Part shown: in pieces, positions 19,372 through 47,054 of the stretch
Layout of the letters: each line of letters begins with the position of its first letter
How positions within the stretch are numbered: position 1 is the stretch's first letter
NCBI GenBank assembly: GCA_032718475.1
Contig: JAUCBJ010007809.1
Location: forward strand, 22,115-86,114
DNA from: Nemertoderma westbladi
Taxonomy: Eukaryota; Animalia; Xenacoelomorpha
Direction: 5' to 3'
DNA length: 64,000 bases
Notes under the pieces: generated by a model
Database searches by the model: none
Told to the model about the DNA's origin: nothing
What the model saw: only the letters and a program-made list of their open reading frames with translations
Position numbers and translations under genes: made by a program

Positions 19372-20664
19372 AATACGATGAAACTATAATAAATATTCTA
19401 GAACACCACAATATTAACAGGGAGATAGGCTACTTATCTCTCCACTCAGAAAGCCACAGAAAGGCGGTGTTCTGACACAATCAAAATTCATCCATCTCCA
19501 GCGGAAAGACGTAGCAAATAACAGCTTATTACTTCTATAAATGTAAGTGTTACCTGTTCTTTTGACGTTCATTTAAGATTCTCTCTCTCGTGGAGTGGGA
19601 TATAAGTTATAAATATGAAAATCGATATGGTTTTTGAAAAAAATCAGAGGATATTTTGATAAAATATTGCAGAAAAACACCAGTGATTTTGATATGGCTT
19701 TAATACTTCATTATGTTCATGAAATAGCTGAGATATTTGAGGTGAATTATTGCATTACATAATAACTTTAGCTCCAGCCACTTTAGCAATACGATGAAAC
19801 AATAACAAGTATTCTATAACACAACAATATTAATAGGGAGATAGGCTACTTATCTCTCCACTCATACAACCACAGATAGGGGGTGTTCTGACACAATCAA
19901 AATTCATTCATCTTCAGCGGAAAGACGTAGCAAATAACAGCTGACTACTTCTATAATTGTAAGTGTTACCTGTTCTTTTGACTTTCATTTAATATTCTCT
20001 ATCTCGTGGAGTAGGATAGAAGTTATAAATATGAAAATCGATATGGTTTTTGAAAAAAATCAGAGGATATTTTAATAAATTATTGCAGAAAAACACCAGT
20101 GATTTTGATATGGCTTTAATACTTCATTATGTTCATGAAATAGCTGAGATATTTGAGGTGAATATTGCATTAGTTAACTTCAGCTCCAGTCACTTTGGCA
20201 ATACAATGAAACTGTAATAAATATTCTAGAACACAACAATATTAACAGGGAGATAGGCTACTTATCTCTCCACTCAGACAGCCACAGATAGGGGGTGTTC
20301 TCACACAATCAAAATTCAACCATCTCCAGCAGAAAGACGTAGCATATAACAGCTGATTACTGCTATAAATGTAAGTGTTACCTGTTCTTGTGACTTTCAT
20401 TTAAGATTCTCTATCTCTTGGAGTGGGTTAGAAGTTATAAATATGAAAATCGATATGGTTATAGTAAAGAATCAGAGGATATTTTGAAAAATTATTGCAG
20501 AAAAATTCAAAGGATTTTGACATGGCTTTAATACTTCATTATGTTCATGAAATAGCTGAGAAATTTGAGGTGAATTATTGTATTATGAGTTAAGTTCAGC
20601 TCCAGTCACTTTGGCAATACGATGAAACTATTATAAATATTCTAGAACACAACAATATTAACAC
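19372..20664 (-). repeat. 417-bp satellite, - orientation
   Basis: About 3 reverse-complement monomers. Confidence 0.95.
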
Positions 20665-22930: not shown

Positions 22931-23475
22931 TGTGACGGGATCCAGATGGGATCCCGGTTTATCCGGTTTGTCAGTTCACGCGTCCCCGCCGTGTGTGAAG
23001 AGTAAAAGAGTTTCGGATGTTCGACGTGTATAATGTTTGGGTATATGGATGTAGATACGGTATAATGGTGGACAAAGTTATTGCATATGGAAGGTGGGAG
23101 ACGGTAATTGAAATCCCGGTACTTCCCTAACTAAACTATTGTAAGCTACAGTAACACCAGTAACTAGCACTGAGATAACTGAACTGGTATGATTACAGGT
23201 TACTGGTTATATTGCACGGTGGCCTTATTGCTACTCAATCGATGCCTTTCCCCCCTCCTGATTGGTTGATACCCTTGTTGGCGCCTTTGGAGTGATCCCC
23301 TTCACTCCACCTGTTCTCTCTGGGTTAGGGGTTTGGCCCCTGACCCTCATTGTGTGGTTCACCTTCCCATTTTGTTGGGGTGACACGAGTTGGTTATTAC
23401 CCCAATCTCGTGGCCCCCAATATTGCTTATCGGCTTAACTTTTATGGGATGTTAGCGGGATTGAATAAGCTAACA
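22931..23475 (-). repeat. 3' LTR of the full-length Bel/Pao element
   Basis: Direct repeat of 36656-37200 with TG...CA termini. Confidence 0.97.
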
Positions 23476-24157: not shown

Positions 24158-25090
24158 TCAGTCCATCCCTCCTTGGCGTCCGTGGTGTCCCCGAAAGTTG
24201 CACTTCGGACATCGGTTCTGCAACCGTGGACACGCTCCCATCCTGTGGCTCGACTCGCGGCAGTAGAGACAACTAGTCCCTTTCTGGAACCGGTACAAAC
24301 AGCTCCTTTCCTGGTGGGTCTGTCTCCCACAGTAGCCGCAACCGAGTACCAATGTCTCCCGCCCCACGTCGTCTTTCATCCCAAGCGATCTCCGCAGTCT
24401 GTGGAGTTGCTGATAGGCGAACTTCTGGACGTTAGCGTCCCTGTCTACGTCGATCTCCTCGCCCCTCCCGGGCATCGTCTCTCCTAATGCTACCCGTGGT
24501 GCCATCCCCGGTTGCTCGCCCAACCTGATAGTGCTCCCCGCGAAATCCATCGCCGGCTCCTCATGCACCCAGGTCCGCTTGCCGGATCTGTTCCAGAAGG
24601 CCCTCGCCCCACTGGCCGTCACCACCCTTCCGCCAACCCTGTCCGTGTCTGAGTGGCCTATCCTCCCGATGGGCGGCATCTCTCCGAACTCGTCGTCGTC
24701 CTCCTCCTCCTCTGGCAGTGGCTTCAACCCCGGTATCCAGGTGGACCCACTATATCCCTTCCCGCCTTGGTTCTTGCCCGTAACTCTCCATACCTCAAGC
24801 TCCCCTAGCCCCCTTTGCGGTTGGTCGCCCTCGGCGCCCGCTGGTATGGGCATCACTTGCAATCCCGACGTCGACTGTTTCGGTGATCCCACCGTCCACC
24901 CTAGTTCTTTCCCTAGAGACTCCCCCGAACTCCCTGACGAAGCCCAACGAAGTTCGTCTAAGGCTGCTTGTTCCTCGAAGCCGTAGCTCTGCGCCCTAGC
25001 TTCCTCCTCCCTCTCCTCTGCTTCTCTCCTCTCTCACAAGTTTGCCTGCCATCTCGAACTCTGCCCGGTCGCTCACCCGTAAGTGGTGCC
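24158..25090 (-). pseudogene. Internally deleted ORF2 of family B (CCHC zinc-knuckle protein)
   Basis: EFEMAGKL start homologous to copy 3; knuckles CGYCGRQTHQERSC, CLYCRESSHRMGAC and CPKCNFRGH. The exonuclease part and C-terminal domain are missing. Confidence 0.75.
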
Positions 25091-26148: not shown

Positions 26149-26560
26149 CTAAGGTGCCCATTCTAGCAGACAGCATTTCCCTACAGCTCTCCTGTAGGTT
26201 TTTCTGTCCTTCGCACCTATCTTACCACCTATCCGCACTTCTACCGATCGGACTCTTCCGTCCTCATCGGAGTAAGTGCCTACAACTCTCGCCAACCGCC
26301 ACTGGTTGTTGATGATAGTATCATCCGTGACGATTACGAGATCTCCCTCTCTTAACTCCCTGTTCGGTTTCCTCCACTTGCTTCTTTTATGGAGTGTGGG
26401 TAGGTATTCTTCTACCCACCTCCTCCAATACTCTGCGCTTATTGCTTTAGCGACTTTCCAACTCTGGCGGGAGTGTATATCATCTGGGTCTACACCCCGC
26501 ATATCGATGGTCGTTGGCCTTTCCATCAGAAAATGGCTAGGCATCAGCACGCTCCGGGTA
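26149..26560 (-). CDS. Bel/Pao integrase C-terminal region (frameshifted continuation of pol)
   Basis: PSHFL...YWRRWVEEYLPTLHKRSKW...GDLV...WRLARV...DGRVRSV, typical of Bel/Pao C-termini (DUF5641-like). Confidence 0.85.
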
Positions 26561-29500
26561 TAGCGGTCTGCTATTAATGATCCCCTCGCACTTCGCAAGC
26601 ACTGTCCGTAAGACGTCCTCAGTGACCATGTGGGTGTTCATTAGCTTCGTCATTAGACGCTTTGAACTTCCCACCAGTCTCTCGACGCATCCTAGTGTAT
26701 GTGGTGCATACGGCGTCCTTCTCTCCCACTTTACTTGTCGTCTTCTCATGGCCGCCCTGACTTCCTCCCCTTCCAAGATGTCCAAGGCCACGGCCATCTC
26801 ATTCTCTGCGCCCACAAAGTTTGTGCCGTTGTCGCTGTATATCACTGCGATCGTCCCACCTTTGCGGTCTCTAAATCTTTCTAAGGCATTAATGAATGCT
26901 GATGCGGTTGCATCCTGGGCGAGTTCTATCCCTACTGCCCGCGTGTTGTTACATACGAAGATGATGCCGTAGCGTTTCTCCATGTGCCGCATCACCTTAA
27001 TCTTTATCGGCCCGAACATGTCCACACCGCAATGCGTAAATGGCGGGTCGTGCTGTCTTACTCTACTAGCTGGTAGTGGCGCCATCTCTTGTATGGATCG
27101 CTCCTTCTTCGCTCGTCGGCACGTCTGGCACTGCCCCACCACCGCTTTTACCTTCTTCCTCAACTGTTTGACCCAAAAGGTCCTCCTTATCTCCGTGAGA
27201 GTTCTGTTGGTACCCCCGTGCAATATCGACTTGTGGGAGTACCAGATAATCTGGTGAACTATCGGCGATCCTGTGGGGATGATGATGGGCTTCGGTGGTA
27301 CAATTATGCTGTTGTTGTATCCCACCCTAGAATTCATCACTAGAATCCCGTCGTCATTAAGTTGTGGCGACAGCGCGATCAGCTCGCTGTCCCGTCGAAG
27401 GTGTTGTTGGTTACCGACGCGTTCAACCTCGTCGCCATAGTTCTTCCATTGTTCATAGCGGATGACTGCCTTGGCCGCTCCTTCCAGATCTATGTATGTA
27501 TTGATCTTCTTGTCCTTGCCAACTCCCGCGAGGAAATTCCCGAAGGCTCTCCAATACGCCACTAGTTTCTTGGTCTTGTACCAACTAGAGCTGTAACTGA
27601 GGAGTTTATCCGTCGGGTTATCGCACAGCTCTTGGCGTGGTTGTACATCCCTAATCTCCCTCACCATCTGGGAGTATATCTCTTCTCCCTCTGAATCTCC
27701 TTCTTCTCCCTCTGACACTACTTCTGAGCCCGGATCCACCTTTCTCATCGGCGGCCAGGCCTCCTTATCACTCAGAAATTGTGGCCCATGTTGCCACAAT
27801 TCTTCCTTCTTCAAGAAAGTGTGGCGTACCACGCCCCTCGACAACAAGTCCGCTGGGTTCTCGTCTGTTGGGCAATAGTGCCACCTTTCCAGTTCTGTGG
27901 TCGCCCTTATTTCGTCCACTCTATTTGCGACGAATATCGGGTATCTCGTCCTTTCGTTTTGTAGCCAACCAAGCACTACCATGGAATCCGTCCAGTAGTG
28001 TGTCTCCACTATGTTGGGAATAGTATCCACTAGGTAGGCTGTGGCTCTAACTCCTAATCTCGCAGCTGTCAATTCTAACTTGGGAACTGATGCTGAATCT
28101 GGTGGTGTCGACTTTGCTTTGCTAAAGGCTAGTCTGGGCTTTTGAGCCCCCTCTCGTTGTACTAAATAGAGTGCCGCTCCGTACGCCTCCAACGACGCAT
28201 CGGAGAACATGTGTAGGTCCAGATTCGTCATATTCCCATCCGGGAAATACACTCGTGGCATGTTGTATGTTCCCATCTTCTCCAAGTCTCCTGTCCACTT
28301 ACTCCACTGTTTCTTGATTTCCTCTGGTACCTCTACGTCCCACTCATCCTTCAATTTGTATACTCTCTTGAGTATCTGTTTCCCCGTGACTAATAATGGG
28401 GATGCTAGGCCTAGGGGATCGTATATCCTTGCTATATACGATACATAGCCCCTCTTCGTGTGGATGTCTGCGCCCTCCTGGCTCAGCTGATACTTCAGTT
28501 CGTCTGTCTCTCTGTTCCACACGATTCCCAATGCCTTCTGTTGAGATTCTGTTCTCTTGTTCGCCATGTCCTGCCCTTTGGCTGTTGTGGGATTATCCAT
28601 GGTCGATTCTGGCCTCTTGTCCTCTATCGCCTTGATAAATTCTTCCGAACTGGATTGGAATTTGGTCAGGTTAAAGCCGGATCCTTTTAGGATGTCGCGA
28701 ACCTCGCGCCCCGTGTCCAGTATCTCCTTAACCGTATTTCCAGACTCCATTCCATCGTCTACGTAGAAGCCGCGTCGAATCATATCGACGGCCCTACTGC
28801 TGTATCTATCTTCCTTCCCCTTCACTGTGTCTCTCACTGCCATAGTCGTCGTAAATGAAGACGACTTGGCCCCCATGTTTTGTACTACCATCTTATATGC
28901 TGGTATTATCGACGGTTCTTCCTCGCCGTTATACCATAAGAAGCGTTGACTGTCGCTATCTTCCTCCGTTACACGGACTTGGTTGAACATGCCTTCTATG
29001 TCACACGTGAAGGCGTGTTTCCCGTTTCTAAATCTAAGTAGGACCTCTATGCCCGAGTTGTATATGTTTGGGCCTTCTAACAGATAGTCGTTTAAGCATT
29101 TTCCGTTGGTCTTTGCCGATGCGTCAACTACCATCCGCAGTTTACCTTTCTTTGGGTCTAAAGCCACGTGGAGTGGCAGGTAATATGTCCTGTCCGTGTT
29201 CGGTTCGTCGACCGGTAACTCCACGGCCCATCCTTTCTCGACGTACTTCTTAATCGTTCTGTGGATGTACTCATTCTTCTCGGGGCTCCGTTTTAGTGTT
29301 TGTTTCAGCTTGCGGAGTCTCGTGAGTACCATCCCTCTATTATCGGGCAGCGGTATCTTCGGTAGTTTCCATACCATTCCTATAGTATACCGCCCCTCAT
29401 CGCATGTCATCGTTTCCTCCACGCTTTGTAAAGCCTGCTTGTCTTCTACCGAGGTCCCGACCCCGGTCTCTTTCAGTCCCTCGAAATCTTGTCTGAGCAG

Positions 29501-31996
29501 TCTTTTAAGCTGCTCCTCTGCTCCCTCATCACCCATTTCCTGCATTGTTCCCGCGAACATGCATCCTGATGTCTCCGACATCCTAAATGGTATCTTGCTC
29601 TTGATTGGACCACTCAGCGTCCACCCGAATGGTGTTAATATGGCCACCGGGTCACTCTGCTTGTCTTCGCCGAAGACCGTTTGCATTCTTTCGTGGGCCG
29701 TTGGGCAGTCCATTCCTACTATGATGGATACCTTCCTAACGTCCACGTCTGGGATTGAGAAGTCAATGTCGTCCAGGAATTTATATTGCTCGACCTCGAT
29801 GTTGGTTGGCCGCCTGGCATTGATATTAATTGACTCTATCACTTGGATGGGGTCGATGGTTGCCCCATAGTCGCATCCCGGTGCCACTGCTGCAATTGCG
29901 CACCGTCCGGTTCTCATCTCCAGGATCTCATCTTTGCTAGAGATGGTTGTTACCGCCATTCTGCTCGGCCTCGTTCTCAATCCTATCTCTTCGGCCACCC
30001 ATTCCTCGACTAGTGTGAAGGCAGCTCCACTGTCAACCAGCATTAGTGTTGTTACTGATCGATTGCCTTCCCCAATCACTCGCACGGGTACTACTCCAAG
30101 TAGCACCGTTCCGCTCTTCTTCGCCCCTGCTGTGCTCGTTGCCATCATTTGGCCTCTCCTCTGACCGAACTTTACCGGCTTCTCCTTGCATTCCCTAGCT
30201 CTATGTCCACTCATCACACACCGTGAACAGATTTTATTGCTCGACGCATAATCTATCTGATCTTGCCTAGGTAGCGCCTGCCAGTACCTGCAGTTCATGG
30301 TTTGATGAAGCGCATTTGCGTGTAGCTGGCATTTGCTCTTTGGGTCGTAGCCCTCCTTATACAGCGCATTGCGTATCGCAGCTGCGTTTGTACCAAAGTC
30401 CCTACTATTCTTATTGTTTGGATTCGGCCTACTGGACGTACTGGGGTTATATTTATTCGTGTTGTTATTGTTCCCCTGTCCGTTCCATGGTGTGGTCTTA
30501 TCTTCGGCTAGCTGTGGACTCGTAGTCCCCTGCGTCGCTGCATATGGCAATGATTGCCTGAGCCTCGGTAATGCGTTTGATGTATTGTGGTCTGGTTTCG
30601 GTCTATGGTAATCTGTTTTCGGTCCCTTTCCCAGGCTATCTTCGCTATAGACTGGGTCAGTTATTAGTTCAGCCTCGTAGTTTAAGAAGTTTGACATTTC
30701 TTCTAAACCTGGTTCCGCACCCTTCTTATCTCGAGTGGAGAAGGCGATTTTCCTCCACTTGTTGCGCAGCCAGTTTGGTAGTGCCTGCGCTATCGTTGTG
30801 ATGTTGTTGGACGCGTTGAGCTCGTATGGCGCGTCTAGCGTCTTCAGCACGATTAGCGCCTTTTCAACTTTGTTAGCAAATGTCTTAATGCTAACGGGAT
30901 TATCCTGTAGGCCACCCGATGTTATGCCTCTTAGTGTCTGTCTGATGATCTTGGCCGGGTGCCCGTATTCCCTATCCAGTGCCCGCCATGCTGTCGTGAA
31001 GCCGCCCTCTATTCCTTGATATTGCCTCACGATATCGTATGCTGGGCCTCCCGTGTATACTTGCAGATACTTTAGGCACTCCGCCTGCGTCAAGTTCTTT
31101 GTTAGTATCTCGTTACTATACATGCGCCGAAACTGTAAATATTCTTCCGGCCTACTCCCATCGAATTTGAATGGTTCCACGGGTGGTAACTCGATCCTCG
31201 TTTTCAACGCATCGATCAACGTGGCCATCCCCATCGCCTGCGCTTCCAATGGATTCGATGGGTGCTGCATAGTTTCTCCTGTCTGGTGCGGTTCGTCCGT
31301 CCTATTTCTTGACTTTCTTTGACTTGGGTATGTCATCGGGGGTAGCGGCCCCCTCCATATTTCTGTGTCACACGACCTATTTTCATCCAAGGGTCTCGTT
31401 GTTCTTGCTCCTATCGGGGTATATTGTTGATATTGTGATGGGGGAATGTCACCCTGCCCCCCCCCCCCCACCGGTATGTTTGGTACTGGGGTTGATGTTA
31501 ATATGTTGGGGCCCATACACCTATCCGCAATAATTCCCCCCTCCCCTGGGTATATGTTATGTCCCTGCATGCTGTAGTCATACTGCTGTACTGGTACCGG
31601 TATAGGCCTATCAGCTTCTGGCCTACTCGCCGGTATGTATTCCGCGACTTCCGGGTTTAATCCCGTCGTCCGCGCTATCCTATCGCCTACATTGCCTCTC
31701 TCAGTATGGCCTATGGTATGTGCAGTAAGGCCTACAGTATGTCCTACAGTCTGCATGTGTCGCTCGGGATCGAAGTTTATTCTTCTCGAATAATCCTCCC
31801 CGCGGCTACCGTATTCTCGATCGGTAGGTATATTCCGTCGGAAAGTTTCTCTTCGACCCCCCTCTCTACTGTCCTCATCTTCGTACCGGTACATCGCGTA
31901 CCCCTCTCTCGGCGCGTAGTGCGCCCCGCCAGGTCGCATCTCTCCGGGGCGACGGCAATCTCCCGGAGTTCGACCCCACTCACTCTCTGTTCTCAT
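26537..31996 (-). CDS. Bel/Pao Gag-Pol polyprotein (Gag, Zn knuckles, aspartic protease, RT, RNase H, integrase)
   Basis: FDGS..EY..F gag; CSRCVMSGHRAREC; LVDSGA; YLPLH..RMVVDAS..DIEGMF.Q..YVDD; FSDAS..ELTAA..WTDS; HHCC followed by VDMFGP/SDNGTNF/VERL. Confidence 0.97.
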   Translation of the reverse strand: MRTESEWGRTPGDCRRPGEMRPGGAHYAPREGYAMYRYEDEDSREGGRRETFRRNIPTDREYGSRGEDYSRRINFDPERHMQTVGHTVGLTAHTIGHTERGNVGDRIARTTGLNPEVAEYIPASRPEADRPIPVPVQQYDYSMQGHNIYPGEGGIIADRCMGPNILTSTPVPNIPVGGGGQGDIPPSQYQQYTPIGARTTRPLDENRSCDTEIWRGPLPPMTYPSQRKSRNRTDEPHQTGETMQHPSNPLEAQAMGMATLIDALKTRIELPPVEPFKFDGSRPEEYLQFRRMYSNEILTKNLTQAECLKYLQVYTGGPAYDIVRQYQGIEGGFTTAWRALDREYGHPAKIIRQTLRGITSGGLQDNPVSIKTFANKVEKALIVLKTLDAPYELNASNNITTIAQALPNWLRNKWRKIAFSTRDKKGAEPGLEEMSNFLNYEAELITDPVYSEDSLGKGPKTDYHRPKPDHNTSNALPRLRQSLPYAATQGTTSPQLAEDKTTPWNGQGNNNNTNKYNPSTSSRPNPNNKNSRDFGTNAAAIRNALYKEGYDPKSKCQLHANALHQTMNCRYWQALPRQDQIDYASSNKICSRCVMSGHRARECKEKPVKFGQRRGQMMATSTAGAKKSGTVLLGVVPVRVIGEGNRSVTTLMLVDSGAAFTLVEEWVAEEIGLRTRPSRMAVTTISSKDEILEMRTGRCAIAAVAPGCDYGATIDPIQVIESININARRPTNIEVEQYKFLDDIDFSIPDVDVRKVSIIVGMDCPTAHERMQTVFGEDKQSDPVAILTPFGWTLSGPIKSKIPFRMSETSGCMFAGTMQEMGDEGAEEQLKRLLRQDFEGLKETGVGTSVEDKQALQSVEETMTCDEGRYTIGMVWKLPKIPLPDNRGMVLTRLRKLKQTLKRSPEKNEYIHRTIKKYVEKGWAVELPVDEPNTDRTYYLPLHVALDPKKGKLRMVVDASAKTNGKCLNDYLLEGPNIYNSGIEVLLRFRNGKHAFTCDIEGMFNQVRVTEEDSDSQRFLWYNGEEEPSIIPAYKMVVQNMGAKSSSFTTTMAVRDTVKGKEDRYSSRAVDMIRRGFYVDDGMESGNTVKEILDTGREVRDILKGSGFNLTKFQSSSEEFIKAIEDKRPESTMDNPTTAKGQDMANKRTESQQKALGIVWNRETDELKYQLSQEGADIHTKRGYVSYIARIYDPLGLASPLLVTGKQILKRVYKLKDEWDVEVPEEIKKQWSKWTGDLEKMGTYNMPRVYFPDGNMTNLDLHMFSDASLEAYGAALYLVQREGAQKPRLAFSKAKSTPPDSASVPKLELTAARLGVRATAYLVDTIPNIVETHYWTDSMVVLGWLQNERTRYPIFVANRVDEIRATTELERWHYCPTDENPADLLSRGVVRHTFLKKEELWQHGPQFLSDKEAWPPMRKVDPGSEVVSEGEEGDSEGEEIYSQMVREIRDVQPRQELCDNPTDKLLSYSSSWYKTKKLVAYWRAFGNFLAGVGKDKKINTYIDLEGAAKAVIRYEQWKNYGDEVERVGNQQHLRRDSELIALSPQLNDDGILVMNSRVGYNNSIIVPPKPIIIPTGSPIVHQIIWYSHKSILHGGTNRTLTEIRRTFWVKQLRKKVKAVVGQCQTCRRAKKERSIQEMAPLPASRVRQHDPPFTHCGVDMFGPIKIKVMRHMEKRYGIIFVCNNTRAVGIELAQDATASAFINALERFRDRKGGTIAVIYSDNGTNFVGAENEMAVALDILEGEEVRAAMRRRQVKWERRTPYAPHTLGCVERLVGSSKRLMTKLMNTHMVTEDVLRTVLAKCEGIINSRPLYPERADA

Positions 31997-32509
31997 CTCG
32001 ACTACCGACGGCTCGCTATCCGTCCTCGCTCTTCTATCGTTCGCGGCGATACTTCTACTACTGTCTTCTCTTCTTCTCCTTTCAGTGGAGTGTTCCCGCT
32101 CGTGAGATCTCTCGTCGACCTCCCGGTTAAATCCCGACTGTTCTTCTTCCCTCTTCTGATCGGGCTCGACGCTTCGTCCGCCCTCTCACGACGTCAACCT
32201 GTCTCTCTCTGCTCGGTCGCACGTCGCTGGGGATACTCGCAATCCCCCTACTACTCTCCGTCGCCGGGTGTTGCGGTTTACCTATTTCGGCCCGCGCATT
32301 ATCCGCTGACGGCTGTGGGACACTCTCTGCCCCCCCCCCCCCTTTCGCCGCTAACTCGCTGTTGTGGGGCCCCTGTAGCCCCCCCCCCCCCCCCCACTCG
32401 CCACATCTAACTTCGCTATCTCTCACCCCGCTACTATATCCCTCTCTAGTCGACACATCAGCCCTACCGCGGTCGGGTCTATTCACCCCCGCCTCTCCCT
32501 CTGCTATTG

Positions 32510-32772: not shown

Positions 32773-34358
32773 GGTAATGGTGAAAAATATCGAGACTTGC
32801 AAAATATCGAGAGTAAAAATAACGAGAGTAAAAATATCGAGAGTAAAAATAACGAGTGTTGAAAATTAACGTGATTAAAAAATATCAAGAGTAAAAATAA
32901 CGCGAGATGAAAAATATCGAAAATAACGAGTGTTGAAAAATATCGAGTGTTGAAAAATATCGAGAGTAAAAATATCGAGTGTTGAAAAATATCGAGAGTA
33001 AAAATATCTAGTGTTGAAAAATATCGAGTGTAAAAATATCGAGTGTTGAAAAATATCGAGAGTAAAAATATCGAGTGTTGAAAAATATCGAGTGTTGAAA
33101 AATATCGAGTGTAAAAATATCAAGTGTTGAAAAATATCGAGAGTAAAAAATATCGAGTGTTAAAAAATATCGAGAGTAAAAATATCGAGTGTTGAAAAAT
33201 ATCGAGAGTAAAAATATCGAGTGTTGAAAAATATCGAGTGTTGAAAAATATCGAGAGTAAAAATATCGAGAGTAAAAATATCGAGTGTTGAAAAATATCG
33301 AGAGTAAAAATATCGAGAGTAAAAATATCGAGTGTTGAAAAATATCGAGAGTAAAAATAACGAGTGTTGAAAATATCGAGTGTTGAAAAATATCGAGAGT
33401 AAAAATATCGAGTGTTGACAAATATCAAGTGTTGAAAAATATCGAGAGTAAAATGTATTGCATTTTGCTTGAGCATTTTATTTAGAATTATGGAACAATA
33501 TTGCAGTGCATGGGTTACAACAGTGCAAGTGAATGGCATTATGTATTACACCTTGGGTACCCATTTACCAGATTTATTATACTAGCTAGTTTTTGCTATT
33601 TTTTGAATAAATATTATAAAAGAAGTGCTAGCTATAAATTTTGATAAATATTATAAATATTGTTAAATATTATATTAGAACACGTACTGTATAAGCTACC
33701 AAATGTTGATAAATATTGTTGTTCTAGAACATTTTTAGTAAAAAAAATTATCATACAACCCTTATTTAAAAAAATTGTTACTATCAATATTTTTACTCTC
33801 GATATTTTTCAACATTCTATATTTTTCAACACTCGATATTTTTACTCTCGATATTTTTCAACACTCGATATTTTTCAATACTCAATATTTTTCAACACTC
33901 GATATTTTTACTCTCGATATTTTTCAACACTCGATATTTTTACTCTCGATATTTTTCAACACTCGATATTTTTACTCTCGATATTTTTCAACACTCGATA
34001 TTTTTACTCTCGATATTTTTCAACACTCGACATTTTTACTCTCGATATTTTTCAACACTCGATATTTTTACTCTCGATATTTTTCAACACTCGATATTTT
34101 TACTCTCGATATTTTTCAACACTCGATATTTTTACTCTCGATATTTTTCAACACTCGATATTTTTACTCTCGATATTTTTACTCTCGATATTTTTCAACA
34201 CTCGGTATTTTTACTCTCGATATTTTTACCCTCGATATTTTTACTCTCGATATTTTTTGAACTCTCGATATTATCGTTATTTTTCAACACTCGATGTTTT
34301 TACTCGCGTTATTTTTACTCTCGATATTTTTCATGTCTCGATATTTTTCAATATAACC
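32773..34358. mobile_element. Foldback-type non-autonomous TIR element with tandem-repeat arms (Merlin-like ends)
   Basis: Arms of 14-15-bp units (AAAAATATCGAGTGTTG / AAAAATATCGAGAGT) in inverted orientation around an AT-rich spacer. GGTAA...TAACC ends with 8-bp TSD CCTCGCTG; 6- and 10-bp registers also fit. Confidence 0.8.
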
Positions 34359-36655
34359 CCTCGCTGGGTCTATTCAACCCAGCGGATCCCTGCCTACCAA
34401 CTACGTGGCCTACCAGGCCCTCTCTGGGTTGGCTCAACCCTGCCGCTTCCGGCCTACCAATTATACGGCCTACCAGACCCCCATCTGCCTGGCCATACAC
34501 GCCCGACGTGTTTACGTTAATAGCACCCATATAGGAAACGGAATTAATTTGTTCGTTCGAAATAAAATCATTTGGATTATGTTGCGCGACTACACTATCT
34601 GAATTATTTTGTAAATTCGGGCTTGGATCATTATTTAAATTATTTGCATTATTTTGTAAATTCGGGCTTGGATCATTATTTAAATTATTTGAATTATTTT
34701 GTAAATTCGGGCTTGGATCATTATTTAAATTATTTGAATTATTATTATTCTCTAAATCTAAATTACCACTCGGATTATTTTGCACGTTGAAATTGAAATT
34801 ATTATCTGTATTTAAATTTAAATTACTGCTACTAGGTAAAGTATTTCCTGCAATAAAGATTTGATTAGAATTATCCCATACGGTACTATTAATATTAACA
34901 ACGTCTACTGTAACATTATCATTATTACCCCCCCCCCCCCCCCCCCCCCCCGCCCGTACGGTCACACCAGTTTTGGGTCTGTCGTGCGGTCCCTGTAAGT
35001 GGGGTATTAATAAATGTATCCACGGCCCCTGGCTCCTCTAAAATACTCGAGCCAGTCCCGCTTTCAGACGCCCCCGCCTGCACCAGTTGCAGCTCGCGCG
35101 CGCGCCTAATCCTATGCCCCGCAAGCTCATTTTGGCATCTCTTTAATTCCTTTCGCTCACACTCCTCCTTGGCCATTCTCTCCCTACACTCCCGTTCGCT
35201 CTGTTCGGCCAACTCTGCCACTCTCCTAGCTTCTTCCCGTCGTCTTGCCCCACGCTCCTTGAGTTCCTTTTCCTCTATCGCCTCATGCTCCTTACGTTCC
35301 GCCTCCTCTCTCGCCTCACGCTCCTTGCATTCTGCCTCCCTTCTCGCCTCACGCTCCTTGCGTTCCTTTTCCTCTCTCGCCTCATGCTCCTTACGTTCCG
35401 CCTCCTCTCTCGCCTCACGCTCCTTGCGTTCTGCCTCCCTTCTCGCCTCACGCTCCTTGCGTTCCGCCACACGCTCCTCTTGTTCCTTTCTCTCTATTTC
35501 CTCATACTCCCTAAGGCTTCTCAAAGCCCTTTCGGCCCTCTCTCCGGTTTCTCTAATCAATACCGTTTCCCTCTCTAGCCGCATTCTCCCCTCCTCTAAC
35601 TGTTTATCCATTTCCCTCTGACCATGCTCTATCAGGTCGAGACGGTACGTGGCACCTATCTCTCTCACCAGTCTTTCTTTCGCGGAGGATGTAACAGACT
35701 TATCGGTTGTGACGGATTCCCTCTGCCTTCCCGTCCTACTAACTTTCCCCCTCCTCCCGGAACTCCCTCCGGCCGACGAGACCGAATCCGCGGGGTCAAC
35801 CTCGGATTTGCCCTCCTCAGGTCTGTTCCAACCCACTGATTTTATACCCCGGGCATCGATTAAGTATGGCCCTATGTACACTACACTAGGTTGTATACCC
35901 CCTTGCCGCCATGAGTCATACAGTTCCTCGGCAACCCTTGTCGCTCTCTCCTCGGCCAATTCTCTCTGCCCGAAGCGCATTAGATAATATAAATGTCTGT
36001 CCGACTTACCTAGTCCTGACTTTAGTTTTACCTCGTCTATAGCCTTCCCCTTTCTGGCCTCCTCTAGTAGTCTCCGGGTCGCGTTGTAGGCCCGTCGACG
36101 TCGATCGGAGACCCCGATGTCCTCGTCGCCGACCTCTCCTCCGTCTCTCCGGGTTCGACGTCGTACCGGCGGCCCCACCGTCGCCGTTCCGGTGGGCCGT
36201 CCGTCGCCCTCGGCCTGTGGTTGGCCCGCGACATCGGTATCGACATCTCCGTCGTCTCTCCGGGTCCGGTGTCGTACCGTCGGCCCCACCGTCGCCGTCT
36301 CGGTGGGCCGTTAGTCTCTCTCGGCCCGTGGCTGGCCCGCGACATCAGTACCTCGACCCACATCCCGTGTTGACTCGTCTTCTTCTCCCTCCATCTCGCT
36401 CTCTCCTCCTCTCGACTCGATCTCGGGTTCCAGGCGGCCCCCCTCATCCTGAGCTGCCGGATGACCCGTTACTGATGGGTCCGGCTTTGTGGGCCTGTAC
36501 CGCCTGGTTGCGGCCTCGCGGATCGTTAATTCTTCTTCGTCCGGGGTCCGCGTCGGCGTTATCTCTCCCGACTGACTCATCTCGGCTTTTGTAGATTGGT
36601 GGCTGGTAGTCACTGAGTTTTAGATAGCTAGGGCGGCAGCTCTGAGTTCAATTAC

Positions 36656-37200
36656 TGTGACGGGATCCAGATGGGATCCCGGTTTATCCGGTTTGTCAGT
36701 TCACGCGTCCCCGCTGTGTGTGAAGAGTAAAAGAGTTTCGGATGTTCGACGTGTATAATGTTTGGGTATATGGATGTAGATACGGTATAATGGTGGACAA
36801 AGTTATTGCATATGGAAGGCGGGAGACGGTAATTGAAATCCCGGTACTTCCCTAACTGAACTATTGTAAGCTACAGTAACACCAGTAACTAGCACTGAGA
36901 TAACTGAACTGGTATGATTACAGGTTACTGGTTATATTGCACGGTGGCCTTATTGCTACTCAATCGATGCCTTTCCCCCCTCCTGATTGGTTGATACCCT
37001 TGTTGGCGCCTTTGGAGTGATCCCCTTCACTCCACCTGTTCTCTCTGGGTTAGGGGTTTGGCCCCTGACCCTCATTGTGTGGTTCACCTTCCCATTTTGT
37101 TGGGGTGACACGAGTTGGTTATTACCCCAATCTCGTGGCCCCCAATATTGCTTATCGGCTTAACTTTTATGGGATGTTAGCGGGATTGAATAAGCTAACA
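36656..37200 (-). repeat. 5' LTR of the full-length Bel/Pao element
   Basis: Direct repeat of 22931-23475. On the - strand a TATA-like AATATAA lies ~30 nt before an initiator-like TCAGT. Confidence 0.97.
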
Positions 37201-39093
37201 AATATCTCACTCCAAGAGATAGAGAATCTTAAATGAAAGTCACAAGAACAGGTAACACTTACATTTATAGCAGTAATCAGCTGTTATATGCTACGTCTTT
37301 CTGCTGGAGATGGTTGAATTTTGATTGTGTCAGAACACCCCCTATCTGTGGCTGTCTGAGTGGAGAGATAAGTAACCTGTTTCCGTGTTAATATTGTTGT
37401 GTTCAAGAATATTTATTACAGTTTCATCGTATTGCCAAAGTGACTGGAGCTGAAGTTAACTAATGCAATAATTCACCTCAAATATCTCAGATATTTCATG
37501 AACATAATGAAGTATTAAAGCCATATCAAAATCACTGGTGTTTTTCTGCAATAATTTATCAAAATATCCTCTGATTTTTTTCAAAAACCATATCGATTTT
37601 CATATTTATAACTTCTATCCTATTCCACGAGATAGAAAATCTTAAATGAACGTCAAAAGAACAGGTAACACTTACATTTATAGAAGTAATCAGCTTTTAT
37701 TTGCTACGTCTTTCCGCTGGAGATGGATTAATTTTGATTGTGTCAGAACACCCCCTATCTGTGGCTTTCTGAGTGGAGAGATAAGTAGCCTATCTCCCTA
37801 TTAATATTGCTGGTTCTAGAATATTTATTATTGTTTCATCGTATTGCTAAAGTAGCTGGAGCTAAAGTTATTATGTAATGCAATAATTCACCTGAAATAT
37901 CACAGCTATTTCATGAACATAATGAAGTATTAAAGCCATGCCAATATACTTGGTGTTTTTCTGTAATAATTTATCAAAATATCCTCATATTTTTTAAAAA
38001 AAACATATCGATTTTAATATTTATAACTTCTAACCCACTCCACGAGATAGAGAATCTTAAATGAAAGTCAAAAGAACAGGTAACACTTACATTTATAGCA
38101 GTAATCAGCTGTTATATGCTACGTCTTTCCGCCAGAGATGGATGAATTTTGATTGTGTCAGAACACCCACTATCTGTGGCTTTCTGAGTGGAGAGATAAG
38201 TAGCCTATCTCCCTATTAATATTGTTGGGTTCTAGAATATTTTTTATAGTTTCATCGTATTGCCAAAGTGACTGAAGTTGAAGTTAACTCATAATACAAT
38301 AATTCACCTCAAATATCTCAGCTATTTCATGAACATAATGAAGTATTAAAGCCATGTCAAAATCCTTGGACTTTTTCTGCAATAATTTTTCAAAATATCC
38401 TCTGATTCTTTACTATAACCATATCCATTTTCATATTTATAACTTCTAACCCACTCCAAGAGATAGAGAATCTTAAATGAAAGTCACAAGAACAGGTAAC
38501 ACTTACATTTATAGCAGTAATCAGCTGTTATATGCTACGTCTTTCCGCTGAAGATGAATGAATTTTGATTGTGTCAGAACACCCCATATCTGTGGTTGTA
38601 TGAGTGGAGAGATAAGTAGCCTATCTCCCTATTAATATTGTTGTGTTATAGAATACTTGTTATTGTTTCATCGTATTGCTAAAGTGGCTGGAGCTAAAGT
38701 TATTATGTAATGCAATAATTCACCTCAAATATCTCAGCTATTTCATGAACATAATGAAGTATTAAAGCCATATCAAAATCACTGGTGTTTTTCTGCAATA
38801 TTTTATCAAAATATCCTCTGATTTTTTTCAAAAACCATATCGATTTTCATATTTATAACTTCTATCTCACTCCACGAGAGAGAGAATCTTAAATGAACGT
38901 CAAAAGAACAGGTAACACTTACATTTATAGAAGTAATAAGCTGTTATTTGCTACGTCTTTCCGCTGGAGATGGATGAATTTTGATTGTGTCAGAACACCG
39001 CCTTTCTGTGGCTTTCTGAGTGGAGAGATAAGTAGCCTATCTCCCTGTTAATATTGTGGTGTTCTAGAATATTTATTATAGTTTCATCGTATT
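37201..39093 (+). repeat. 417-bp satellite, + orientation
   Basis: About 4.5 monomers. Confidence 0.95.
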
Positions 39094-40321
39094 AGTGACG
39101 GAATCCACGGAGGATCCCGGTTTATCCGGTTGTTCCAATTATTCGTCCCCGCCGTGTGAGTGAAAAGTGTGAGATTAAGAGTTCTAATATTGTTGACGCT
39201 GTAGCAGTATAAATATAATAGGATAAGCACAAACACAGTTATTGCAGTATTGAATGAGATATAAAATATAAGTGAATGATGGCAGCAGTGGACGGTATTA
39301 GAGTCACCGCTCTGCCCTAACTAACCGACTAACAGAATGAGATGACTACTGAATGATAACATGGTAGCTGGTAATATATTGCACGGGTTGGCCGTATTGC
39401 ACTACCCAGCCGATGCCTTCCCCCCATTGGCTAATAACCCTGTTGTCGCCCTTTACTCTCTTCTCCCCCCGCTACTGTCACTCTCTCCCCTGGAGGTATA
39501 ACCTCTGACCCCCTTTGTGTGTGTCTCCTTTGGGGCCTATTGCCCCCGCTTATTGGGTGGCACGAGGTTGATTGGTAACCAACCTCGTGCTCCCAATATT
39601 GCCTAAAAAAAAAACTTTGTGTGGGCCTGGTTAACGGAATTGAATACGCTAACACCCCCCCCCCCCCCTAGTGCGCTACAATTCCGTTGGATCCCGATCT
39701 AACATCGGGTGTGGGGTGGAATTATTTTTCCGGAGCTGGCTTTCCAGGCCGCCCCCTATGGGTATGATATCGCTACCCTGTTTACCTGGCGTACCGTGTC
39801 GGGCCGATCGCGCGCTTCTCTCACACGACTTTTGTTTCCCCAACACTTTCGCCACTCCAACTCCACTCTGTTCTCACCCTGACTCTCCTCTACTTCTTCT
39901 TACTTCCGCTCTAACTTTCGGACTTCCCTGTCCCTCACTCAGCCTCTTATTCCTCCCCCCCCCCCACACTTGAATTGCACCCGCACTCTCCTTACGCTGT
40001 TACTCAACCCCTATCTCAGCCACTCACTCCTGACGAGCTTCACCCTCCTTCCGTGCCGTCGCACTCAAGAAGTGTGATGTCGTCCAGTGTCTCGTCCGTG
40101 ATAGTATTATAGTCTATTGGTCCCCAGTCCCAGTAGCTAATTGGAAAAAGGTTATACAACTATAGTACTTACTTCGATTGTATTTACTTGCTAAACTAAT
40201 AATGATTGCTACGTACTTACATACTAATTGCACTTTTCAATTATTTAGATTACTTGAATTTGTACTTAGGAGTTCGCACGTTTTGCGTGGTGCCTTCCAG
40301 GCATGTCACATCTCTAGTTCT

Positions 40322-42162
40322 CTAGTTTGTTCCGCTCGCCTTTGGGAACCACCTTAACTCTTTCCCTCTATCGTCTTCCTCCATTGGTCGTTTCCTGGCT
40401 GCTGCCGCTCCTTTGGTCTTGTCTGCTTTCAGGCTCCTGACCTTCGCCATCACCTCTTTACTAATCCCGGTCGTCGACTCCTTGGGAGCTGGTGTTATCA
40501 GTTCCCGGTATCGCTTCGTGGGTGGCCCCTCCGAGAGGCCCTGTTGTCTCCCCCTGGTGGTGTCCCATAGGATCATTTTCATCGCCCGCGGCACATGCTC
40601 CGCCAAGAAATCTCTGAACTCCCCTCGGTTCTGTGACGTCCACCTGTCCAAATACCTCTGCGTATTTATCACCCCGGCATACGACGCCGCCGTTGCTACC
40701 TCCTGATAGGTAAATGGAAGTCTTCGCTTAATAATCTCCAGGTGGGCCTCCTGATTAATATTGAAACCCCACCGGAACTCCTGGGCCTTCCTACGTTGCC
40801 GTGTCGTGGCACCGACGTCGGTCCACTCCTCGAAGATCCTAAACTTCTCTTCTTCGTCCATCCAGTCGCACTAGCGTCCGTAGTGCCCCCGAAAGTTACA
40901 CTTCAAACATCGGTTATGCAACCGTGGACACGCCCCCATCCTGTGACTTGACTCGTGGCAGTAGAGACAACTAGTTCCTTTCTGGAACCGGTACAAACAG
41001 CTCCTTTCCTGGTGGGTTTGCCTCCCACAGTAATCGCAGCCGAGCACCCATGTCTCCCGCCCCAAGCGATCTCCGCGGTCTGTGGAGTCGCTGACGAGCG
41101 AATTTCTGGATGTTAGTGTCCCTGCCCACGTCGATCTCCTTGCCCCTCACGGGCATCGTCTCCCCGAATACTACCCGTGGTGCCATCCCCGGTTGTTCAC
41201 CCAATCTGATGGTGCTCCCCACAAAATCCATCGCCGGCTCCTAATGCACCCAGGCCCGCTTGCCGGGTCTATCCCAGAAGGCTCTCACCCCACTGGCCGT
41301 CACCACCCTCCCGCCAACCAAGTCTGTGTCCAAGTGGCCCAACCTCCCGATGGGCGGCATCTCTCCGAACTCGTCGTCATCCTCGTCCTCCTCCGGAAGT
41401 GGCTCCAACCCCGGTATCTTAGTGGATCCACTGTGTCCCTTCCCACCTTGGCTTCCTCGCCTTCCCACAGCTCCGCAATGGCCTGTGTTCTCGACTAGTC
41501 CCAAACCGTCTGGTGCTGTCATAGCCATGACGACCGTCTGCATGTCTAGGAGGTTGGGGTGTCCAGACCGATGATTCTCTCCGCGTCATTGCGAATTGCC
41601 GATCCCACTTTCGTCGTCGACTTCTCTCTCACTAGGACTTGCACCGCCCTCGGCAGCCGGTTTAACTTCGGCCCGTCCTTCTTCCCATACGTTCCCAGGT
41701 CAAATAGGAAAATATCCCCATTTGGCGCAGCTAAGTGTAGGAGTATGGTTCTGGCCGATCCCGCCGACCCTCCTCGTCTTCTACGGTCCCTTCGTCGTCT
41801 AGGATCATGTATCCTCCCTTGTTGACGGACTCTATGAACCTCTTCCAATCTTTCCTCGGCGACTCTCTCGCGTACTTCGGAATCCCGAACTTCGCCTTGT
41901 CTCCTTTCACCACGTAGTGGAAATGCTCGAAGATCACGTTGTCCAGCGACGGCGTCCCGTAGGTCCCGACCAGCCGCTGTTCGTGCACCTCCCTAAAGTG
42001 GTCCTGTAGCGCTCGTGCTGCGTGACCCTTTTCTAACCACTCGTAGTATCCCCTTGTCCTCTCTTCCGGATGCCTCTTGGTGAAATCCACCAGTATCTCC
42101 TTTCCTCCTGACTCCGCCTTTCTCTTTCTGATCAGCTTCCCTGCCATTTCGAACTCTCTCAC
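40322..42162 (-). pseudogene. Bel/Pao ORF2: DEDD 3'-5' exonuclease-like domain, 3 CCHC knuckles and a C-terminal domain (frameshifted)
   Basis: YMILDDEG / LLHLAAPNGDIFLFDL / KVGSAIRNDAERI / NLLDMQ across three frames; CX2CX4HX4C three times. Confidence 0.7.
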
Positions 42163-42278: not shown

Positions 42279-44734
42279 CTAAGGTGCCCCCTCTAGAAGA
42301 CAGCACTTCCCTACAGCCCTCCTGTAGGTCTTCCTGTCTTTCGCACCTATCTTGCCACCTATCTGCACTTCTACCAATCGGAATCTTCCATCCTCATCGG
42401 GGTAAGTGCCTACAACTCTCGCCAACCGCCACTGGTTGTTGATGATAGTATCATCCATGACGATCACGAGATCACCCTCTGTCTCTCTCTGTTCGTGCTC
42501 CTCCACTTATTTCGTCTGTGGAGCGTCTAGTGACTCCGGGTCATCATTCTCTGGATATAGCGGTCTGCTATTAATCATACCCTCACACTTTGCAAGTACT
42601 GTCCTTAGTATGTCCTCCGTAACCATGTGGGTGTTCATCAACTTTGTTATTAGGTGCTTGGAACTACCCAGTAGTCTCTCAACGCACTCTAGGGTATGCG
42701 TGGCATACGGCGTCCTCCTCTGCCACTTTACTTGTCGTCGTCTCATGGCTGCCCTGACTTCCTCCCCTTCCAGGATATCCAAGGCCTCTGCCATCTCGTT
42801 CTCCGCCCCCACAAAGTTGTTGACGCTGTCAGAATATATTACCGCCACCGTCCCACCTTTGCGTTCTCTAAACCTTTCTAGAGCATTAATGAATGCTGAT
42901 GTGGTTGCATCTTGGGCAAGTTCTATCCCTACCGCCCGCGTGTTATTACATACGAAGATTATACCGTAGCGTTTCTCCGTGTACTGCATCACCTTAATCG
43001 TTATCGGCCCGAACATGTCCACACCGCAATGCGTAAATGGCGGGTCGTGCTGTCTTACTCCACTCTAGTGGTGCCATCTCCTGTATGCTCTCTCCTTCTT
43101 CGCTCGTCGGCAGGTCTGGCACTGCCCCACTACCGCCTTTACCTTCTTCCTCAACTGTTTGACCCAAAAGGTCCTCCGTATCTCCATGAGGGTTCGGTTG
43201 GTGCCCCCGTGCAATATCGACTTGTGGGAGTCCCAGATATTCTGGTGGACTATTGGCGATCCTGAGGGGATGATGATGGGCTTCAGTGGTACGACGATAC
43301 TGTTGATGTATCCCACCGTGGAGTTCATTACTAGAATCCCGTCATCATTAAGTTGTGGTGACAGCGTGATCAGCTCGCTGTCCCATCGGAGATGCTGTTG
43401 TTTACCGACGCGTTCCACCTCGTCCCCGTAGTTCTTCCTTTGCTCATAGCGGATGATTGCTTTGGCCGCCCCTTCTAGATCGATTGTTGTTTTAACTTTT
43501 ACGTCCCTGTCGACTCCCATGAGGAAATCCCAGAAGGCTCTCCAGTATGCCACTAATTTATTGGTCTTGTACCAACTAGAACTGTAGCTAAAGAGTTTAT
43601 CCGTTGGGTTATCGCACAGTTCTCCTGGTTTTGGTTGCACGTCCCTTATCTCCCTCACCATCTGGGAGTATATCTCTTCTCCCTCTGAACCTTCCTCTTC
43701 TCCCTCTAATGCTGCTTCTCCTGAGCCCAGGTCCACCTTTCTCATCGGCGGCCAGGCCTCCTTATCGTTCAGAAACTGAGGTCCGTGTTGCCACAGTACT
43801 TCCTTCTTCAAGAAAGTGTGGCGTGCCACGCCCCTCAATAACAAGTCCGCTGGGTTCTCGTCTGTTGGGCAGTAGTGCCACCTTTCTAGTTCTGTAGTCG
43901 CCCTTATTTCGTCCACCCTATTTGTGACGAATATAGGGTATCTCGTCCTCTCGTTATGTAGCCAACCAAGCATTACCATGGAGTCCGCCCAGTAGTGTGT
44001 TTCCACTATGTTAGGAATAGTGTCCATTATGTAGGCTGTGGCCCTAACTCCTAGCCTCGCAGCTGTTAACTCGAGTTTCGGAACCGATGCTGAATCTGGT
44101 GGCGTCGACTTCGCCTTGCTGAAGGCGAGTCTGGGGTTGTGGGCCCCCTCTTGTTGTACTAAATAGAGTGCCGCTCCGTATGCCTCTAGTGACGCATCGG
44201 AGAACATGTGCAGATCCAGATTTGTCATGTCCCCATCCGGGAAATACACTCGTGGCATGTTGTATGTTCCCATTTGCTCCAAACTTTCTGTCCACTTGCA
44301 CCACTGTTTCTTGCTGTTTCTTGATCTCCTCTGGTACCTCTATGCCCCACTCGTCCTTTAGTTTGTATACTCTCTTGAGTATCTGCTTCCCCGTGACTAA
44401 TAATGGGGATGCTAGGCCTAAGGGATCGTATATCCTCGCTATGTACGACACATAGCCCCTTTTTGTGTGGATGTCTGCGCCCTCCTGGCTTAACTGGTAC
44501 TTTAGCTTGTCCATCTCTCTATTCCACACGATCCCTAGTGCCTTCTGTTGGGACTCTAAACGTTTGGTCGCCATGTCCTGCCCCTTAGCTATCGTGGGGT
44601 TATCCATGGTCGATCCTGGTCTCTCATCTTTTATCGCCTTGATAAATTCCTTCGAACTGGATTGCAATTTGGTTAGGTTAAAGCCGGATCCTTTAAGGAT
44701 GTTGCAAACCTCGCGCCCTGTGTCCAGTAGCTAC
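42279..44734 (-). pseudogene. Bel/Pao pol pseudogene (RT end, RNase H, integrase)
   Basis: ORFs 44044-44667, 43065-44282, 42507-43022 and 42279-42506 are homologous to the intact polyprotein. Confidence 0.92.
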
Positions 44735-47054
44735 TGATAACTGCTATAAATTAAGTGTTACCTGTTCGTTTGACTTTCATTTAAGATTCTCTATCACGTG
44801 GAGTGGGTTAGAAGTTATAAATATTAAAATCGATATGGTTATAGTAAAGAATCAGAGGATATTTTGATAAATTATTGCAGAAAAATACCAAGGATTTTGA
44901 CATGGCTTTAATACTTCATTATGTTCATGAAATAGCTGAGATATTTGATATCTGTTCTTTTGACGTTCATTTAAGATTCTCTATCTCGTGGAGTTGGATA
45001 GAAGTTATATATATGAAAATCGATATGGTTTTTGAAAAAAATCAGAGGATATTTTGACAAATTATTGCAGAAAAACACCAATGATTTTGACATGGCTTTA
45101 ATACTTCATTATGTTCATGAAATAGCTGAGATATTTGAGGTGAATTATTGCATTACATAATAACTTTAACTCCAGCCACTTTAGCAATACGATGAATCAA
45201 TAATAAATATTCTAGAACACAGCAATATTAATAGGGAGATAGGCTACTTATCTCTCCACGCATACAACCACAGATAGGGGGTGTTCTGACACAATCAAAA
45301 TTCATTCATCTTCAGCGGAAAGACGTAGCAAATAACAGCTGATTACTTCTATAAATGTAAGTGTTACCTGTTCTTTTGACTTTCATTTTAGATTCTCTAT
45401 CTCGTGGAGTGGGTTAGAAGATATAAATAAGAAAATCGATATGGTTTTTAAAAAAAATATGAGGATATTTTGATAAATTATTACAGAAAAACACCAAGTA
45501 TTTTGACATGGCTTTGATACTTCATTATGTTCATGAAATAGCTGTGATATTTGAGGTGAATTATTGCATTACATAATAACTTTAGCTCCAGCCACTTTAG
45601 CAATACGATGAAACTATAATAAATATTCTAGAACACAACAATATTAACAGGGAGATAGGCTACTTATCTCTCCACTTAGACAGCCACAGAAAAGCGGTGT
45701 TCTGACACAATCAAAATTCATCCATCTCCAGCGGAAAGACGTAGCATATAACAGCTGATTACTGCTATAAATGTAAGTGTTACCTGTTCTTGTGACTTTC
45801 ATTTAAGATTCTCTATCTCTTGGAGTGGGTTAGAAGTTATAAATATGAAAATCGATATGGTTTTTGAAAAAAATCAGAGGATATTTTGATAAATTATTGC
45901 AGAAAAACACCAATGATTTTGACATGGCTTTAATACTTCATTATGTTCATGAAATAGCTGAGATATTTGAGGTAAATTATTGCATTACATAATAACTTTA
46001 GCTCCAGCCACTTTAGCAATACGATGAAACAATAATAAATATTCTAGAACACAACAATATTAACACGGAAATAGGATACTTATCTCTCCACTTAGACAGC
46101 CACAGAAAAGCGGTGTTCTGACACAATCAAAATTCATCCATCTCCAGCGGAAAGACGTAGCATATAACAGCTTATTACTGCTATAAATGTAAGTGTTACC
46201 TGTTCTTGTGACTTTCATTTAAGATTCTCTATCTCTTGGAGTGGGTTAGAAGTTATAAATATGAAAATCGATATGGTTATAGTAAAGAATCAGAGGATAT
46301 TTTGATAAATTATTGCAGAAAAACACCAGTGATTTTGACATGGCTTTAATACTTCATTATATTCATGAAATAGCTGAGATATTTGAGATGAATTATTGCA
46401 TTACATAATAACTTTAGCTCCAGCCACTTTAGCAATACGATGAATCAATAATAAATATTCTAGAACACAGCAATATTAATAGGGAGATAGGCTACGTATC
46501 TCTCCACGCATACAACCACAGATAGGGGGTGTTCTGACACAATCAAAATTCATTCATCTTCAGCGGAAAGACGTAGCAAATAACAGCTGATTACTTCTAT
46601 AAATGTAAGTGTTACCTGTTCTTTTGACTTTAATTTAAGATTCTCTATCTCGTGGAGTGGGTTAGAAGATATAAATGAGAAAATCAATATGATTTTTAAA
46701 AAAAATATGAGGATATTTTGATAAATTATTACAGAAAAACACCAAGTATTTTGACATGGCTTTAATACTTCATTATGTTCATGAAATAGCTGTGATATTT
46801 GAGGTGAATTATTGCATTACATAATAACTTTAGCTCCAGCCACTTTAGAAATACGATGAAACTATAATAAATGTTCTAGAACACAACAATATTAACAGGG
46901 AGATAGGCTACTTATCTCTCCACTCATAAAACCACAGATAGGGGGTGTTCAAATGCAATCAAAATTCATCCATCTCCAGTGGAAAGACGTAGCAAATAAC
47001 AGCTGATTACTGCTATAAATGTAAGTGTTACCTGTTCTTTTGACGTTCATTTAA

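Follow-up and report, generated by a model that had tools for sequence, protein, structure and literature searches.

The locus studied here raises the question of how a Bel/Pao retrotransposon starts reverse transcription when its 5' LTR is not followed by a tRNA primer-binding site (PBS). The window, that is, the whole stretch of 64,000 nucleotides of Nemertoderma westbladi DNA that was analysed, holds such an element at 37200-22931, and all the features of this element given below lie on the (-) strand. Its two LTRs of 545 nt each (5' LTR, 36656..37200; 3' LTR, 22931..23475) are of the TG...CA type and differ at 3 sites, a G-rich polypurine tract stands just before the 3' LTR, and a 5-bp target-site duplication, ATATT, is found at 37201..37205 and 22926-22930; the copy is a young insertion. 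An open frame of 1882 codons (26537..32185) covers a Gag-like DUF1759 region, protease, reverse transcriptase (RT), RNase H (Peptidase_A17) and integrase, with Pfam matches to Peptidase_A17 (E 5e-40), DUF1759, protease and rve, and to DUF5641 in the adjacent frame. Residues visible in the protein P0001 are presumably those of the acidic RNase H motif. Nearly all of the 120 homologues listed from the protein collection contain PF05380, the best identity being 36-38% over RT/RNase H. The PR-RT-RH-IN domain order and the family-type Pol domains, together with the LTRs, the polypurine tract and the target duplication, are those of Bel/Pao elements (Belpaoviridae), and a domain search of the element found no chromodomain, which leaves it outside the Tf1/sushi group of Ty3/gypsy. 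The ICTV description of Belpaoviridae/Semotivirus, with which it shares LTRs, polypurine tract, domain order and family-specific Pfam domains, gives an 18-nt PBS for tRNA-Arg or tRNA-Gly, priming by host tRNA and a size of 4.2-10 kb (PMC8742986), whereas the window element has no tRNA PBS and measures 14.3 kb, or about 12.7 kb without a nested insert; the 18-nt tRNA PBS is a descriptive trait, and the family placement rests on Pol.

The nested insert (32773-34358) lies within the element's 5' coding region. It is 1.59 kb of non-coding DNA bounded by terminal inverted repeats, with long tandem arrays in its subterminal parts and what seems to be an 8-bp target duplication, and looks like a non-autonomous DNA transposon. 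Despite only 3 LTR differences, the 5' coding region is broken (34925-36580, (-)) by an in-frame stop near 36311, G-runs and this insert. Downstream of pol, an extra open frame (24158-25033, (-)) with three CCHC-like zinc knuckles has related frames near 40322-41498 and 17396-18148 and is 86% conserved in family C. The Pfam search of this frame gave no match and the Atlas search reached 0.76-0.83 at best, to zf-CCHC clusters; judging from its sequence, the product could be a second nucleocapsid-like RNA chaperone. The Bel/Pao copies of the window sit inserted in a 416-bp satellite with a higher-order spacing of about 2.2 kb (19372-22908, 37208-39093, 44734-47055, 50370-59097 and others), and pieces of family C form large inverted duplications (11704-14358 with 44735-42093, 98%; 17507-20661 with 40963-37801, 96%). 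A Mutator-like transposase frame (48091-49944, (-)) and the rve integrase frame of another element (602-1696, (+)) lie in the same window. All 131 scored RT matches to the window element in the assembly are 95-100% identical and many frames exceed 1000 codons; going by these matches, the family is large and recently active.

When the junction was read again, the 5' LTR was found to end in GTCACA and to be followed with zero gap by GTAATTGAACTC (36655-36644), as the initial annotation had described, and there is no TGG within the first 60 nt of the leader. The LTR itself contains GATTTCAATTAC (36840-36829), 173 nt before its end. These two sequences had been presented as an 11/12 complement, of which the 9-nt part stands, since PBS positions 1-9 are each paired in 78-79 of 79 copies, while the extension is attributable to chance, with positions 10, 11 and 12 pairing in only 5/79, 15/79 and 22/79 copies. 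We describe a 9-nt PBS, GTAATTGAA (36647..36655), which adjoins the LTR end, and a predicted 3' end of the self-primer, TTCAATTAC (36829..36837), with a predicted cut between 36829 and 36828. Only 32 of 10000 shuffles of the window LTR gave a match of at least 9 nt. Self-priming in Tf1/sushi elements has the same geometry, in which the PBS adjoins the LTR, as in the window copy, and complements the LTR of its own element; the likeness drawn by the initial annotation is borne out.

The PBS variants of the family were compared with 34 tRNA sequences of 16 anticodon types, an incomplete set of which some members look bacterial. In agreement with the tRNA-independence proposed initially, no variant paired 9/9 with any sequence or fragment of this incomplete set. 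The best pairings were 8/9, one between the anticodon arm of tRNA-Arg(TCT) and GTATTAGAA and one between the T arm of tRNA-Lys and another variant, and both have their mismatch at position 2, next to the primer 3' end. As a positive control, the TGG-type PBS of another Bel family paired 18/18 with tRNA-Lys(TTT). Following the logic of plus-strand copying, a host primer would fix the PBS at one sequence; the existence of at least 10 PBS variants therefore disfavours it. The Rfam search of 36500-37250 returned nothing at E <=10, and a pattern combining a T arm with the motif, which is a weak test, gave 0 matches. We also considered tRNA mimicry, as the sequence upstream of the family-C motif resembles a D arm and the anticodon loop of tRNA-Arg(TCT); this idea was dropped in view of the empty Rfam result, of its failure to suit most variants and of other helices that account for the sequence. 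Some tRNA matches (L063, L078, L089, L065 and L090, in G000:C1846 and C2853) have what we take to be bacterial features, which suggests that the assembly includes contaminant or symbiont contigs.

The initial annotation had named covariation between LTR motif and PBS among families as a test. Copies came from three sources: similarity searches with three LTR types (30 loci taken per type, out of 40-42 listed), a pattern fitted to the two sides of the PBS that left the PBS itself free (194 matches; 30 taken from 100 listed, with rare PBS variants deliberately picked while their LTRs were still unseen), and 10 weaker LTR-similarity matches. The resulting 135 LTR ends, less 8 duplicates, made 127, namely 79 5' junctions (78 recognised by the leader motif and L152 by eye) and 48 other ends; the LTR motif was located from its own flanks and the PBS was not used. 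Motif and PBS paired 9/9 in 78 of the 79 junctions, while none of the 48 other ends (3' or solo LTRs) showed such pairing. One further copy, L164, which the LTR-end pattern had missed, was also paired 9/9, bringing the count to 79/80 junctions with 10 sequence variants, a nearly perfect covariation. The exception, L125, differs at a single position and lies at a tip of the LTR tree; its partner LTR was not found within about 30 kb downstream. A tree computed from 78 LTRs with the motif left out had 9 changes of PBS class, and the motif changed each time. In a 23-row alignment the primer-PBS helix was 100% paired, compared with 30-46% in slid controls, and 6 of the 9 pairs had changed on both sides, which is compensatory change of the kind expected of Tf1-type self-priming. 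Since the nine bases after the LTR complement the LTR motif and covary with it, it is likely, as far as sequence comparison can tell, that the window element primes reverse transcription with its own RNA and not with a tRNA.

For family C, the PBS had been predicted from its LTR motif to be GTATTAGAGTC. This was right in 8 of the first 9 bases and wrong as an exact sequence: the LTR end followed by GTATTAGAG gave 0 matches, and in the family-C relatives the real PBS, GTATTAGAA, faces the LTR motif TTCTAATAC. The two family-C copies of the window are one T shorter than these relatives, and the motif in the 3' LTR, CTCTAATAC (39295..39303, (-)), is one base shorter than theirs. Three family-C 5' junctions (L033-L035, G000:C9029) follow each other at a spacing of 1579 bp as a tandem array of LTR and leader.

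A further pattern search gave 12 matches, which comprised two duplicates, eight new copies, all paired and one of them a new variant, and two others, L320 and L319, of which L319 is rearranged. L320 has kept its PBS and lost the motif through an internal LTR deletion. Patterns requiring complementarity of more than 9 nt, this search included, gave 13 matches in all. In L319 and L335, which belong to different subfamilies, U3-R ends at the last base of the motif and is fused directly to the antisense U5 end. L319 has a 5-bp duplication on its flanks, and its inverted piece corresponds to 175 of the 180 nt between the motif and the LTR end, the segment predicted for strong-stop DNA; in L335 the antisense strand goes back through part of the LTR and then into apparent antisense internal sequence. 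Read as sequence fossils, these joints have the form expected where minus-strand cDNA is attached to its primer, and they support self-priming, short of proof. The same form could result if plus-strand strong-stop DNA folded back, or if templates were switched at the DNA level at the 9-bp inverted repeat. In L005, L006, L008, L022 and L128 the PBS is duplicated in tandem, in some of them together with the last LTR bases; these duplications are likely errors of plus-strand transfer.

The primer would have to lie in the transcript, and the initial annotation had allowed for the motif falling in untranscribed U3. A TATA-like box, GTGCAATATA (36933..36942), is conserved across subfamilies and is followed by an initiator-like sequence, TCAGTTATC (36899..36907), where transcription is predicted to start at 36905, leaving 77 nt to the primer end. 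With loose motifs, 74 of 79 copies have the box, and 69 of these 74 have an initiator-like TCAGT/TCACT 28-33 nt further on; the distance from this site to the primer end varies between copies from 43 to 77 nt. The motif is downstream of this conserved pair and thus probably in transcribed R. A search for RNA evidence listed no RNA data set with the element, and one run present as contigs only, with a word share of 0.07, covered neither the motif nor the PBS. The caution expressed at the outset that the primer may be internal is probably right, as the promoter-like motifs and the predicted outer helix both point that way.

Tf1 needs flanking helices and a U5 stem, and similar elements appear in the predicted folds of 78 distinct sequences, taken from the predicted start to the leader. 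The outer helix, predicted in 71/78 folds, would pair a TAGGG core (36850..36854) with CCCTA of the leader CCCTAG (36628..36633), drawing on bases that precede the primer end by about 22-33 nt. A second helix, predicted in 66/78, would join the strand directly after the presumed cut (36818..36828) to AGCGGGGACG (36706..36715), and an 8-bp U5 hairpin (36661..36681) ends 5 nt before the PBS. The primer-PBS duplex is short, with nine A-U-rich base pairs, and dominates only 23/78 predicted ensembles because an imperfect PBS-like decoy in the LTR, GTGAACTGA (36696..36704), competes for the motif. A local hairpin with the motif in its loop was rejected, being favoured in 3/78 folds only. Decoy and motif vary together (33 distinct pairs, mean -3.6 vs -2.5 kcal/mol, 0/2000 shuffles), as do the two strands of the outer helix (68 pairs, 0/1000 shuffles), both figures being uncontrolled for relatedness. 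Two-sided changes affect one pair of the outer helix and none of the cut-adjacent helix and the U5 hairpin, which are conserved without covariation. From these models we infer an internal primer and a two-state RNA switch, for which a protein-driven change from decoy to PBS must be assumed.

In the proposed mechanism, Pol II would start transcription at the initiator, about 30 nt after the TATA-like box. The outer helix, the helix 3' of the motif and the U5 hairpin would bring the motif to the PBS, and pairing of the two would displace the decoy. A cut after the last C of the motif, most likely by the RNase H of the element by analogy with Tf1, would then free a 3' end, the primer being, unlike that of Tf1, the 3' end of a 5' fragment of 43-77 nt. 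Minus-strand strong-stop DNA of about 155-213 nt would be made and transferred to the 3' R, and plus-strand synthesis would copy nine primer bases and would presumably halt there on the longer primer. In this way the PBS would be rewritten from the LTR motif in every round, which would explain why PBS and motif change together. We consider it quite probable that this full model is correct, with the element's own RNA folded in cis, cut after the motif and used as an internal primer in place of a tRNA.

Next, 32 further Bel/Pao elements of this genome were chosen among the top Peptidase_A17 matches for their long open frames, and 23 junctions were scored. Ten of these were TGG-type, eleven, from 10 lineages, had a contiguous LTR match of 10-14 nt that begins 0-2 nt after the LTR (p <=0.003 for each element, three offsets tried), one, L182, matched its LTR across a GT-AG intron, and one, L178, had no match. 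The 10 lineages with contiguous matches share 31-48% identity in RT/RNase H protein. Among 79 metagenome loci from other organisms, 9 junctions were identified by eye: none had TGG, one had a contiguous match of 12 nt, four matched over 10-12 nt with a GT-AG intron in between (100 shuffles with four offsets put p at about 0.01), and four were left without a match of either kind. In L182, L215, L225, L245 and L259, the sequence after the LTR pairs over 10-14 nt with the exon-exon joint across the GT-AG intron of the LTR, while no TGG and no match, contiguous or spliced, is present in L178, L223, L227, L228 and L282. In a 31-row RT/RNase H tree, one branch (95/89) parts the 8 TGG-type rows from the 23 others, and the 12 contiguous-match rows of this genome, the window family included, make up one clade (98/96); a quick tree of 111 rows was also built. 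The 31-row tree is unrooted, so that gain and loss read alike on it. A joint reading, to which we would give an even chance, is that a large Bel/Pao branch left tRNA priming once and that its self-priming, with an internal primer, evolved independently as a second case, a decoy-to-PBS RNA switch gating the primer in the window clade and splicing of the LTR intron assembling it in a sister clade.

The alternative that survives best, itself unlikely, is that the primer is encoded by the element and acts as a separate short RNA, in place of a cis fold cut by RNase H; it could be an LTR transcript that ended prematurely, an RNA cut by a host nuclease or, within a dimer, the partner genome. The predicted 5' fragment of 43-77 nt has a size possible for short promoter-proximal RNAs, the many LTR copies of the assembly could supply such an RNA, and the nuclease is not one that can be named from sequence alone. 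However, close subfamilies with different motifs match their own LTRs, which a shared primer pool would blur, and the predicted helices flanking the cut nest around the primer helix within one molecule.

Slightly less probable still is the exact mode of Tf1, with transcription starting at or just before the motif and a primer of about 9-12 nt, an alternative that shares the main conclusion of self-priming. It would agree with the fact that pairing and apparent PBS copying end at exactly 9 nt, with the only about 9 primer-complementary bases held by the PBS duplications, with the pyrimidine-purine step at which the match begins in some sister lineages, and with L209, in which a TATA-like run precedes the primer end by 33-35 nt. 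Against it, the window family has its conserved TATA/initiator pair 43-77 nt upstream, and the outer helix draws on bases well before such a start.

It is very unlikely that the helix is structural only, serving packaging, a translation switch or as an analogue of the retroviral U5-leader stem, while an unidentified host RNA primes. The decoy and the alternative folds do behave like a switch in the models, and the 8/9 pairings of tRNA-Arg(TCT) and tRNA-Lys would offer candidates. Nevertheless, these pairings fail at position 2 while the TGG-type control is complete, a primer must anneal at the LTR boundary, which is the very site of the covarying 9-mer, and a host primer would reset the many PBS variants to one sequence. 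Finally, the match could have no function and have arisen because two sites, which do recombine in the rearranged copies, repeatedly switched templates or underwent gene conversion. This is extremely improbable and largely refuted by the sister-lineage matches and the RT/RNase H tree, as it would leave the element without any primer site and unrelated 10-14-mers hold the same geometry in lineages so distant from each other.

The initial annotation knew of no report of self-priming in Bel/Pao, and our search of the literature, with subscription journals, Repbase Reports, GyDB and supplements outside its scope, found none either. Cer7 of C. elegans is said to encode its own tRNA-like primer, for which this search gave no confirmation. 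The text available for PMC13524379, PMC5443660 and PMC3601003 contains no Bel/Pao self-priming, and a search by term found no discussion of PBS or tRNA in PMC554778, PMC3118150 and PMC8556966. According to the parts available of the respective papers, the Tf1 primer consists of the transcript's first 11 bases (PMC7175516, PMC4600332, PMC5341516, PMC11042837), is made by an RNase H cut between bases 11 and 12 (PMC7175516, PMC4600332, PMC5341516) and is copied into the cDNA end (PMC11042837). Like Tf1/Tf2 of Schizosaccharomyces pombe, Tj1, other Tf1/sushi elements and Tcn1 (Ty3/gypsy), the window family has no tRNA site and a PBS that complements its own LTR RNA. Unlike Tf1, it belongs to a different superfamily, has no chromodomain match and forms a duplex of 9 nt instead of 11, its primer is predicted 43-77 nt inside the transcript and not at the first bases, and it has a predicted outer leader helix as well as a decoy that covaries. 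Tcn1 and the TAR lineage of plant Ty1/copia (Houba, Osr-1) are likewise predicted to be self-primed, the latter from LTR-PBS complementarity alone, in the available part of PMC6317226, which does not extend the claim to Bel/Pao. For the window family it is likewise inferred from LTR-PBS complementarity; the TAR lineage differs in its copia domain order and plant hosts. The same partial text describes half-tRNA priming in other Ty1/copia elements (Osser, Bryco, Bianca), in which the PBS has no TGG and the primer arises by cleavage (PMC6317226). The window family is similar in lacking TGG and in its predicted cleavage, but a half-tRNA is encoded by the host and its PBS should be fixed, whereas here the PBS follows the LTR. 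The proposed mechanism is a variant of a known one, in a group not described as using it.

In the window family, the predicted start, cut and cDNA 5' end have exact coordinates that can be put to the test, and its ten matched variants provide natural controls; a self-priming PBS would explain why annotation based on the PBS misses such Bel/Pao elements. If the proposed mechanism is true, these elements would escape any silencing that tRNA 3' fragments exert at the PBS, and an internal primer would lift the constraint, seen in Tf1, that the primer be the first bases of the transcript. It would also be relevant to the question, raised in the available text of PMC3601003, of which of the two is ancestral, self-priming or tRNA priming. 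Furthermore, the reference statement that Belpaoviridae are tRNA-primed would be wrong for a sizeable branch, and self-priming would have arisen in all three LTR superfamilies.
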